The notes below the pieces were generated by a model that was not told where the DNA came from, made no database searches, and was given only the letters and a program-made list of their open reading frames with translations. A stretch of 64,000 bases of DNA, taken from positions 18,820 to 82,819 of the forward strand of contig DATHDG010000011.1 of assembly GCA_035319125.1 (NCBI GenBank). The letters run 5' to 3'. Source of the stretch: Dissulfurispiraceae bacterium (GTDB taxonomy: Bacteria > Nitrospirota > Thermodesulfovibrionia > Thermodesulfovibrionales > Dissulfurispiraceae). Shown here in pieces: positions 16,558-18,056 of this stretch (positions are counted from its first letter, which is position 1; the number at the start of each line of letters is the position of its first letter). Both the position numbers and the translations under genes were made by a program.

Positions 16558-16866
16558 TCAACAACAGCCGTTCTTCTTGCCGCCACTATTGCAGTCGCAC
16601 GATGGTTCTCCTCCATATAGCATGCTGTTTATGATAGCAGTAGCGCAACCTACGCCTTTAGCAACCGATAATGCGTTGAAAGCACAATTATTTGCACAGG
16701 CTCCACACTCCATGCAACTGTCGCGGTCGTGCACTGACGCCTTACCATCCAACATTATAAAGACGTTATGCGGACAGACCTCTATGCACATGCCGCATCC
16801 TGTACATCGGTCAGGAAAAAACTCTATGCTTGCCGACCCTGACAGGTATTTCATATGACGTTCCAC
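16558..16866 (-). CDS. hgcB: mercury methylation ferredoxin HgcB
   Basis: 102 aa. Two 4Fe-4S motifs (CTGCGMCIEVCP, CMECGACANNC), a conserved downstream Cys (VGCATAI) and a C-terminal vicinal Cys pair (the protein ends ...NGCC). The start overlaps the hgcA stop by 16 nt. Confidence 0.8.
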   Translation of the reverse strand: MERHMKYLSGSASIEFFPDRCTGCGMCIEVCPHNVFIMLDGKASVHDRDSCMECGACANNCAFNALSVAKGVGCATAIINSMLYGGEPSCDCNSGGKKNGCC

Positions 16867-18056
16867 GCATACAGCTTGAACAGCATCAATAGTACAACAG
16901 AAACTGTGCCGGCAGACAGGTAGATCGGTACGGCAATCTTAAGTTCTTTTTTTACGCCGGACATGCCTGTAAAAGTTGTTGAACCGGTAAATTGAAGAGC
17001 TAAATACGAGCTTGCAACGGGAAAGAATATACATTCGACAATGCTGAGCAAGACATTTTGCTGAGTATATTGAGCAATAAAATTGCCGGCAACAAAGGTT
17101 GAAATCAGCCCTGTTAGCCATCCTTTGACAGCAAAAGACCTGAAAGGTATGAAAGGCAATAGGATCGGTGTGATGAAAGACCCCGCCATAATCGATGACA
17201 GACCTAATATAAGGAAAGGCAGGCCTCCAATAAGGGCATCTTTAAAGATAATACCTGAAGGATCCAGCCCGAAAATGAGCAAAACGATTGCTGCATACAG
17301 CAAAAATATCCGCATGGCCGGCCGGATTTCCATAGGGGTCAGCACGAATCTGTCAATCAGATCAAATTGTATTTGTCGCATATTTTTTGTTGCTTTATAT
17401 CTCGCCAGGATGAAGGCTGGGATATCTTTCGCATAGACAGGTCCGAAAATAACTCGAAACCCTGTAGCCTGTTTTATTCTAAATGCGCTTATACCGACTG
17501 CCCCAAGCTGAGGAACGATTATCCGTCTGTGATCAACAAGCATCTCCAGGCAGACTGATGATATGCGTTTAATTAGTTCATCGGTTCCAAATGTGCCTTT
17601 ACCGGCAGCACACCAGACGTTGATCCCTTTAGTGTCTAGAACCAGTATCCAAGCGTTTATTCCATGCAGTTCTCGCCTGAGAAGATCAAAGCTATATTTG
17701 TAGTTTGCGCTAACCAATACCTCGGATGATTTATCCGGAGACCCCACGGCATATAGTCCGGGAGCGATCTTGCAGTTATTCCGATATGATGTAGTCCTGC
17801 ATTTGAAATGATCCCAATAGTCGGATAATGTTAGATTGGTCGATGCTTTAATAACCGGGCCTGCGGTAGTCGTTAAGACAGCCTCAGCCCAGTTCGGCCG
17901 GTCTACTATACTTGGCCTACAGCATGGTTCAGCCGGTCTGCTGATCACATCCAATTTGACCGGAGACCCGCTACAATCGCACGATCTTTCTTCTGCCCTG
18001 TTATTTTCAGTGCTCTTGAATTTGAGTTCAAATATATTTTTCTTGTTGTCAGTCAC
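16851..18056 (-). CDS. hgcA: mercury methylation corrinoid protein HgcA
   Basis: 401 aa. The exact cap-helix motif N-V-W-C-A-A-G-K is at residues 146-153 (nt 17621-17598). The context LYAVGSPDKSSEVLVSANYKYSFDLLRRELHGINAWILVLDTKGINVWCAAGKGTFGT is CFeSP-like. The C-terminal ~170 aa form about five TM helices. Confidence 0.85.
   Translation of the reverse strand: MTDNKKNIFELKFKSTENNRAEERSCDCSGSPVKLDVISRPAEPCCRPSIVDRPNWAEAVLTTTAGPVIKASTNLTLSDYWDHFKCRTTSYRNNCKIAPGLYAVGSPDKSSEVLVSANYKYSFDLLRRELHGINAWILVLDTKGINVWCAAGKGTFGTDELIKRISSVCLEMLVDHRRIIVPQLGAVGISAFRIKQATGFRVIFGPVYAKDIPAFILARYKATKNMRQIQFDLIDRFVLTPMEIRPAMRIFLLYAAIVLLIFGLDPSGIIFKDALIGGLPFLILGLSSIMAGSFITPILLPFIPFRSFAVKGWLTGLISTFVAGNFIAQYTQQNVLLSIVECIFFPVASSYLALQFTGSTTFTGMSGVKKELKIAVPIYLSAGTVSVVLLMLFKLYAWNVI

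Follow-up and report, generated by a model that had tools for sequence, protein, structure and literature searches.

The 64,000-nucleotide (nt) stretch of DNA analyzed here (the window; contig DATHDG010000011.1 of assembly GCA_035319125.1, positions 18,820 to 82,819), from an uncultured, sulfur-cycling Dissulfurispiraceae bacterium of the phylum Nitrospirota, very probably carries a canonical, unfused hgcAB mercury-methylation gene pair, arranged with a third gene as a coupled hgcC-hgcA-hgcB unit. HgcAB is the sole known route to methylmercury, a neurotoxin that biomagnifies in food webs, and each HgcAB-bearing lineage therefore matters for predicting where methylation occurs. The locus itself offers evidence of orthology, intact motifs, architecture and synteny; cofactor binding, use of S-adenosylmethionine (SAM), expression and methylmercury output are what we infer. 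A first-pass annotation of the window, made from its letters, had proposed the pair as two open reading frames (ORFs) of 401 and 102 amino acids (aa), and both are present as reported (Table 1).

Table 1. Coordinates of the hgc locus and its surroundings in the window
Feature	Position	Strand	Remarks
hgcC	18053..18328	-	91 aa, AbrB/MazE-fold 'HgcAB-associated protein'; NF040962 and Pfam MazE_antitoxin
hgcA	16851..18056	-	401 aa, GTG start; NF040863
HgcA CDC pair	17973..17981	-	residues 26-28 (Cys26, Cys28), N-terminal tail
HgcA CC pair	17919..17924	-	Cys45-Cys46 ('EPCCRP'), disordered N-terminal tail
HgcA corrinoid-binding domain	17397..17891	-	PDB sequence and Foldseek matches to CFeSP; Pfam CdhD PF03599
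HgcA cap-helix motif NVWCAAGK	17598..17621	-	residues 146-153, Cys149
HgcA membrane domain	16866..17336	-	five predicted helices, AlphaFold2 and Kyte-Doolittle
hgcB	16558..16854	-	98 aa (most likely start), dicluster ferredoxin; NF040864
orfX	16227..16523	-	98-aa orphan, 34 nt downstream of hgcB
Receiver and HD-GYP protein	15226..16230	-	putative c-di-GMP phosphodiesterase; Pfam Response_reg and HD_5
Amidohydrolase gene	18602..19861	-	between hgcC and the haem-copper oxidase cluster
Haem-copper oxidase cluster	19901-25026	+	SCO1, COX1, COX3, COX4, COX2-cytochrome c, haem O synthase
dsrA and dsrB	34274-36580		
DsrD-like ORF	36655-36870		next to dsrB; by eye from translation
Rubredoxin	36954..37118	-	next to dsrB; by eye from translation
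DsrN-like amidase	37254-38660		
DsrC	39814-40149		ends PKPTGCV
DsrMKJOP	40939-46276		

HgcA family and corrinoid domain

On the NCBIfam HgcA equivalog model NF040863 (cutoff 275), the 401-aa protein reaches 388.9 bits (E 1.8e-116), and all three proteins of the unit (HgcA, HgcB and HgcC) exceed the curated equivalog cutoffs of their own families, in agreement with the HgcAB identity proposed in the first-pass annotation. The same sequence stands in GenBank as HMK59751.1, 'mercury methylation corrinoid protein HgcA'. Pfam recognizes in HgcA and HgcB solely the CdhD corrinoid domain PF03599 and generic Fer4 domains. Among solved structures, the only homologs of HgcA detectable by sequence are large CFeSP subunits (CFeSP, corrinoid iron-sulfur protein), with 4djd_C (E 6.2e-09) and 2h9a_A (E 4.6e-08) matching over residues 95-220; the corrinoid Fe-S-protein-like context noted earlier is thus borne out over these residues.

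Searched exhaustively, 1.84 billion cluster representatives yielded 1585 relatives at E<=1e-3, including 428 at E<=1e-30. The closest other HgcA proteins are 54-68% identical and come from nearly exclusively Nitrospirota metagenome-assembled genomes (MAGs). An alignment was built from 135 of the best 150 representatives, four close matches, the window protein and two CFeSP domains, and in a neighbor-joining tree of 124 corrinoid-domain columns, calculated without bootstrap, the window protein groups with Nitrospirota-type HgcA in a clade of six leaves. From the members of this clade it is separated by patristic distances of 0.25-0.48, and from the CFeSPs by 1.70-1.75. Taken as a whole, its sequence identifies the window protein as HgcA, a separate polypeptide with hgcB directly downstream.

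The motif NVWCAAGK was reported by the first-pass annotation at nt 17621-17598 of the minus strand, with its cysteine at residue 149, and this is exact. It is one of six high-stringency cap-helix motifs, with the pattern N(V/I)WC(A/S)(A/G/S)GK (Capo et al. 2022, PMC10087281), and the strictly conserved HgcA cysteine within it, Cys93 in the characterized strain ND132, is absent at the matching position of CFeSP (Cooper et al., PMC7305189). Consistent with this, Cys149 aligns to Thr374 of the Carboxydothermus hydrogenoformans CFeSP (2h9a_A), and the column holds Cys in 140/140 HgcA-family rows and Thr in 2/2 CFeSP rows. The homology of Cys149 to ND132 Cys93 rests on the CFeSP alignment and the invariance of this column, ND132 being absent both from the PDB sequence file and from the 80 hgcA loci described next, and its model 9a0b_A having been matched only by fold. 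For these counts the unbiased representative search was used, since a second set of 80 hgcA loci had been retrieved with patterns that included GINVWCAA and is unfit for judging motif conservation. By analogy with the characterized enzyme, the thiolate of Cys149 is predicted to bind cobalt as its lower axial ligand.

Membrane domain and N-terminal tail of HgcA

An AlphaFold2 model of HgcA, computed from a 22-sequence alignment and of moderate quality (mean predicted local distance difference test score, pLDDT, 65.7), has an alpha/beta corrinoid domain and, C-terminal to it, five long helices (residues 241-262, 271-298, 308-327, 335-360 and 364-397). Kyte-Doolittle hydropathy strongly backs four of these C-terminal helices and weakly backs 308-327, so that the five-helix membrane domain described in the first-pass annotation is recovered as four strong helices and one weak one. 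The block LQFTGSTTFTGMSGVKKEL, within this domain, is the most conserved among HgcA relatives. The top Foldseek match in the PDB is 9a0b_A, the integrative ND132 HgcAB model (E 1.8e-17, 35% identity, 328 columns), and the next are the CFeSP structures 2ycl_A, 4c1n_G and 4djd_C, with root-mean-square deviations (rmsd) of 2.6-2.8 Å over about 128 columns.

A disordered tail spans residues 1-55 (pLDDT <50 for residues 1-49), and in it the CDC pair lies upstream of the CC pair. Haft and colleagues (bioRxiv 10.1101/2022.07.06.499078) showed an unrecognized N-terminal extension with a cysteine-selenocysteine (Cys-Sec) motif, PCUGP, to be present in many HgcA proteins, those of ND132 and Geobacter among them, and CC to stand in place of this motif in other homologs. 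The window HgcA is identified by its tail as an all-cysteine counterpart of the PCUGP form, that is, of the published CU/CC extension. Such a CC/CxC tail occurs in 46/76 HgcA ORFs from other genomes. The presence of these tails does not track that of hgcC. Neither the tail motifs of HgcA nor hgcC, nor the genes downstream of hgcB described below (orfX and a response regulator), had been remarked on in the first-pass annotation.

HgcB

HgcB scores 114.9 bits on NF040864 (cutoff 99; E 1.1e-33) and covers the full profile, positions 1-93; its E-value, like that of HgcA, lies far outside what chance would produce. The 102-aa ORF spans 16558..16866 with a GTG start, and the NCBIfam HgcB profile begins at its residue 6; a 98-aa form, identical to GenBank HMK59750.1, is in public databases, where the 102-aa form is not found. 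The start is therefore most likely the ATG at 16854. The earlier description of HgcB as a 2x[4Fe-4S] ferredoxin with an extra conserved cysteine and a terminal CC pair stands, except that its start is likely the later ATG and that its second motif ends in CA.

In the 98-aa numbering the cysteines are at 17/20/23/27, 47/50/53/57 and 70, with tail cysteines at 86, 88, 97 and 98 (in the 102-aa numbering, 21/24/27/31, 51/54/57/61, 74, 90, 92, 101 and 102). The first eight make up two CxxCxxCxxxC [4Fe-4S] motifs, CTGCGMCIEVCP and CMECGACANNCA. Cys70, in a conserved GVGCA context 13 residues past Cys57, is the equivalent of ND132 Cys73, the ND132 cysteines being at 20/23/26/30, 50/53/56/60 and 73 (PMC7305189). 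The C-terminus, ...EPSCDCNSGGKKNGCC, carries the four tail cysteines as a CDC followed by a CC end, and this tail is conserved in at least 60 neighboring hgcB genes. For HgcB, the published criterion is a C(M/I)ECGA motif encoded on the same contig as hgcA (PMC10087281); the window HgcB has CMECGA, and its gene adjoins hgcA on a single contig. Together with the exact cap-helix motif, the locus thereby shows both features of the consensus 'high-stringency' criteria (Capo et al. 2022, PMC10087281).

A separate observation concerns two Desulfobacula MAGs (L048 and L062), whose HgcB ORFs end after 'PGVG', where all others read GVGC. These ends fit the reported selenocysteine (UGA) form at residue 73.

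HgcC and the hgcC-hgcA-hgcB unit

The gene directly upstream of hgcA encodes a protein that scores 121.5 bits on NF040962, 'HgcAB-associated protein HgcC' (cutoff 70), and 34.3 bits on Pfam MazE_antitoxin; its PDB matches, to AbrB-family regulators, are weak. Its GenBank counterpart is HMK59752.1, HgcAB-associated protein. Homologs adjoin hgcA in 19/80 other genomes, almost always directly upstream, and Cys21, Cys65 and Cys66 are invariant in those 19 proteins. A PrlF-MazE-AbrB-like gene upstream of hgcA has been described as a putative hgcAB regulator, mainly in Archaea/Methanomicrobia (Zhang et al. 2023); a literature search on 'hgcC' returned nothing relevant. In the operon, HgcC most likely acts as a DNA-binding regulator with an AbrB fold or as an accessory protein.

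The junctions between the three genes are very tight. The TGA stop of hgcC overlaps the GTG start of hgcA as a 4-nt GTGA, and, with hgcB starting at ATG 16854, the TGA stop of hgcA (16851-16853) overlaps the hgcB start codon (16854-16856) as a 4-nt ATGA, the two genes lying in different frames. All three ORFs are intact, and a strong AAGGAG Shine-Dalgarno sequence lies 5' of the hgcC ATG. From this layout, hgcC-hgcA-hgcB is predicted to be a translationally coupled unit. A promoter and terminator scan gave nothing exceeding the shuffled expectation. The guanine-cytosine (GC) content of the hgc genes, 0.445-0.453, equals that of the flanks, and the GC profile shows no compositional island at the locus. 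This match in GC content and the gene order kept in the nearest relative both argue against a recent acquisition.

Proposed mechanism

If the window proteins work as does the characterized enzyme of Pseudodesulfovibrio mercurii ND132, the sole one with known biochemistry (PMC11588087, PMC7305189), from which this mechanism is taken, the five helices would anchor HgcA to the membrane and its cytoplasmic domain would bind a corrinoid. The two [4Fe-4S] clusters of HgcB would reduce the cobalt of HgcA to Co(I), which would then be methylated by SAM to methyl-Co(III), with the thiolate of Cys149 as its lower axial ligand. Transfer of the methyl group to an Hg(II) bis-thiolate would give CH3Hg+. Hg(II) and CH3Hg+ would be shuttled by HgcB Cys70 and the C-terminal cysteine pair, and perhaps the N-terminal CC of HgcA may handle them likewise. 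By the same analogy, the organism would be a methylmercury producer.

Alternative explanations

Two other family identities can be set against the one preferred here. That the 401-aa protein is the CFeSP of the Wood-Ljungdahl pathway (AcsC/CdhE), with the ferredoxin next to it unrelated, is exceedingly improbable: the resemblance is confined to about 125 alignable residues at 24-30% identity, and the CFeSP gamma model NF003195 gives 63.9 bits against a cutoff of 306 and is covered only at profile positions 319-445. The protein is also without the N-terminal [4Fe-4S] and TIM-barrel domains of CFeSP, having a five-helix membrane domain instead and a cysteine in place of CFeSP Thr374, and the window ORFs that were scanned included no acs/cdh genes. 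Profile, architecture and tree together refute a CFeSP identity. Membership in the fused HgcAB-like paralog family, whose carriers, where tested (Pyrococcus furiosus is one), do not methylate Hg, has an equally slight probability. The protein does cross-match the model of that family, NF043039, at 198 bits, but this is below the cutoff of 285 and, because four undisputed HgcA proteins (P0127, P0002, P0241 and P0207) give 190-208 bits, is to be read as background. Moreover, hgcA and hgcB occupy two ORFs whose frames differ, and a TGA stop separates them. A fused non-methylating outgroup was sought among 150 representatives, and the sole protein of fused architecture, P0271, proved by profile to be HgcA plus HgcB and is not a tree neighbor of the window protein; since P0271 is no member of the fused non-methylating clade, the exclusion of that clade rests on profile cutoffs and architecture, which together refute membership. 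With the window proteins above the HgcA and HgcB cutoffs, and with HgcA below those of both rival models and placed apart from CFeSP in the tree, the profile and phylogenetic checks named in the first-pass annotation both favor HgcAB.

Two further alternatives concern function. The proteins may be true HgcAB orthologs with no meaningful methylmercury output, serving some other corrinoid- and SAM-dependent reaction in which the methyl group goes to another metal(loid) or acceptor, or being poorly expressed, in which case 'producer' would be an overstatement. The native role of HgcAB is unsettled in the literature and its expression is extremely low even in ND132; no isolate from Nitrospirota has been assayed, the putative regulator here is HgcC, unlike the experimentally characterized ArsR type, and an O2 reductase adjoins this O2-sensitive system. 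Against this, all unfused hgcA-positive isolates tested so far methylate Hg (PMC10087281), and every residue that mutagenesis has shown to matter is present, namely the cap-helix cysteine, the counterpart of HgcB Cys73 and one or more cysteines at the C-terminus. On balance we regard a non-producing HgcAB as unlikely. Less likely again is that the 91-aa upstream gene encodes the ordinary antitoxin of a type II toxin-antitoxin module (MazE/PrlF) and lies next to hgcA by chance, outside the hgc system. It does match Pfam MazE_antitoxin, and such genes were first labeled in the literature as toxin-antitoxin related, but no toxin gene follows, its stop codon overlaps the hgcA start, and it matches the dedicated NCBIfam HgcC family well above the cutoff. 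Its recurrence beside hgcA and its three invariant cysteines, atypical of MazE, likewise speak against a chance neighbor.

The case for a canonical, methylating HgcAB pair is also to be set against several observations that weigh on the other side. The hgc-positive isolates that have been assayed for Hg methylation, and in which it has been validated, all belong to Desulfobacterota, Firmicutes and Euryarchaeota, with no Nitrospirota isolate among them (PMC10087281), and the window HgcA shares only about 35% identity with the characterized one of ND132. In HgcB, the canonical CP at the end of the second ferredoxin motif is replaced by CA, a feature typical of its clade (close relatives have A or E there, and most Nitrospirota-type relatives lack the Pro). 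The neighboring aa3-type oxidase hints at exposure to O2. No corrinoid synthesis or uptake was seen in the 64-kb window, nor did an Rfam scan of the window find a cobalamin riboswitch or any other RNA family. As for the analyses themselves, the AlphaFold2 model is moderate, with the cap helix at pLDDT <50, and the short HgcA tree, lacking bootstrap support, is supporting evidence only.

P0271 deserves separate mention. This single polypeptide of 445 aa scores 334 bits on the HgcA model and 109 bits on the HgcB model, both above cutoff, and 242 bits on the fusion family against the cutoff of 285. Either genuine HgcA and HgcB have been fused naturally here, or the polypeptide is an artefact of gene calling or frameshift.

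Comparison with known systems

The best characterized counterpart of the window pair is HgcA/HgcB of ND132 (DND132_1056/1057; Pseudodesulfovibrio mercurii = Desulfovibrio desulfuricans). The NVWCAAGK cap helix with its cysteine ligand is identical, as is the cysteine spacing of HgcB, including the Cys73 equivalent and the C-terminal CC, and it is the ND132 model 9a0b_A that the window HgcA matches best in structure. The systems differ in the HgcA tail (CC in the window, Cys-Sec of the PCUGP type proposed in ND132), in the upstream gene (AbrB-like hgcC here, an ArsR-type regulator in ND132) and in HgcB, which in the window has an extra CDC pair in its tail and reads CA, not CP, after the second motif.

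Closer still are the HgcAB proteins of uncultured Nitrospirota MAGs (Hg-MATE/GTDB representatives, including a Dissulfurispiraceae MAG, P0002, with VK448 locus tags), which share the tree clade of the window protein. Their identity of 54-68% to the window HgcA is full-length, extending over the N-terminal ELKF...CC tail, and many have hgcC upstream. The nearest relative, a second Dissulfurispiraceae MAG (L082), differs in that it has no hgcC and in that its HgcA, 68% identical, is without the CC tail segment. The HgcC family itself (NF040962; Zhang et al. 2023) occupies the same place directly upstream of hgcA, but has been reported mainly in Methanomicrobia, whereas the window copy is bacterial, as in many Nitrospirota loci; its function is putative throughout.

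More distant are the CFeSP large subunit (AcsC/CfsA; 2h9a, 2ycl, 4djd) and the HgcAB-like fusion family (NF043039; Pyrococcus furiosus Q8U2U9). The former shares a homologous Rossmann-like corrinoid domain and its cap helix (about 128 residues superpose at an rmsd of 2.6-2.8), yet is only 24-30% identical, has Thr in the cap helix, an N-terminal Fe-S domain and a TIM barrel but no membrane domain, and uses methyl-tetrahydrofolate, not SAM. The latter has cap-helix, membrane and ferredoxin motifs in a single polypeptide, unlike the two ORFs of the window, which stay below the family cutoff.

The finding is already known insofar as the exact proteins are annotated in GenBank: HMK59751, HMK59750 and HMK59752, named HgcA, HgcB and HgcAB-associated protein, lie on a 157.5-kb contig of a Dissulfurispiraceae MAG. 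Nitrospirota that are hgc-positive have been reported in many surveys (including PMC10087281 and Zhang et al. 2023), and hgcAB-positive Nitrospirota with dsr genes have already been catalogued, so this instance adds little that is new. A literature search found no publication pairing hgcA with Dissulfurispiraceae or Thermodesulfovibrionia. The value of the present case is thus to document the trait in Dissulfurispiraceae, a family-level observation that is unpublished in the literature searched, if unsurprising, and to provide a clean example of a full-length, all-cysteine HgcA together with hgcC.

Genomic context

The first-pass annotation had placed a complete dsr locus about 16 kb from the pair, and the distance from hgcA to dsrA is indeed 16.2 kb (34274 minus 18056), with a complete set of dsrABD, dsrN-like, dsrC and dsrMKJOP genes. 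Downstream of dsrMKJOP and on the opposite strand, at 46675..48123 (-), we also noted by eye, from the translations, four ORFs, one TusA-like and bearing a CPYP motif, the others small and DsrE/F/H-like.

A haem-copper oxidase module had also been reported beside the pair. It is present, as an aa3-type cluster on the strand opposite to hgc, but it is not directly adjacent, the amidohydrolase gene and hgcC lying between. The nearest relative keeps the order of COX cluster (1-3577 of L082), amidohydrolase, hgcA, hgcB and orfX. The association of the hgc locus with an aa3-type oxidase cluster is thus conserved across two Dissulfurispiraceae members. The GC content of the oxidase cluster, 0.48-0.52, is above that of the hgc region (0.45).

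orfX and the response regulator

The orphan gene orfX, which follows hgcB, has no Pfam or NCBIfam match. In the nearest relative, the sole other genome to carry it, a gene likewise placed behind hgcB (L082 6472-6768) has a product 72% identical to that of orfX, and among 5.8 billion proteins its homologs form two clusters only, both from Dissulfurispiraceae. GenBank calls orfX as 129 aa from 16616, overlapping hgcB, a call that is probably too long. The receiver/HD-GYP gene lies on the same strand, its start overlapping the orfX stop, and is probably co-transcribed; its score on NF053512 is below cutoff. It is absent after orfX in the nearest relative and rare near hgcA in 80 other loci, and is not a conserved hgc neighbor.

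It is tempting to speculate that the hgc unit of Dissulfurispiraceae is larger, running hgcC-hgcA-hgcB-orfX and here extending to the receiver/HD-GYP gene. This proposal rests on the single strand and the short or overlapping junctions of these genes, and we regard it as unlikely. In such a unit, orfX would be a lineage-specific fourth component, perhaps accessory or membrane-tethering, the system would be tied to cyclic di-GMP (c-di-GMP), and the cysteine pairs of HgcC (65-66) and HgcA (45-46) and the HgcB tail might form a thiolate relay that brings Hg(II) to the methyl-corrinoid.

Two other observations were made in this part of the window. Three HD-GYP (PF13487) proteins are encoded within 16 kb, at 1579..2589 (-), 6987..7943 (-) and 15226..16230 (-), the last being the receiver fusion found downstream of the hgc genes. 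About 11 kb from hgcA, at 4461..5312 (+), lies a gene for a protein that combines a PF04060 'FeS' domain, of the type found at the CFeSP N-terminus, with DUF3786.

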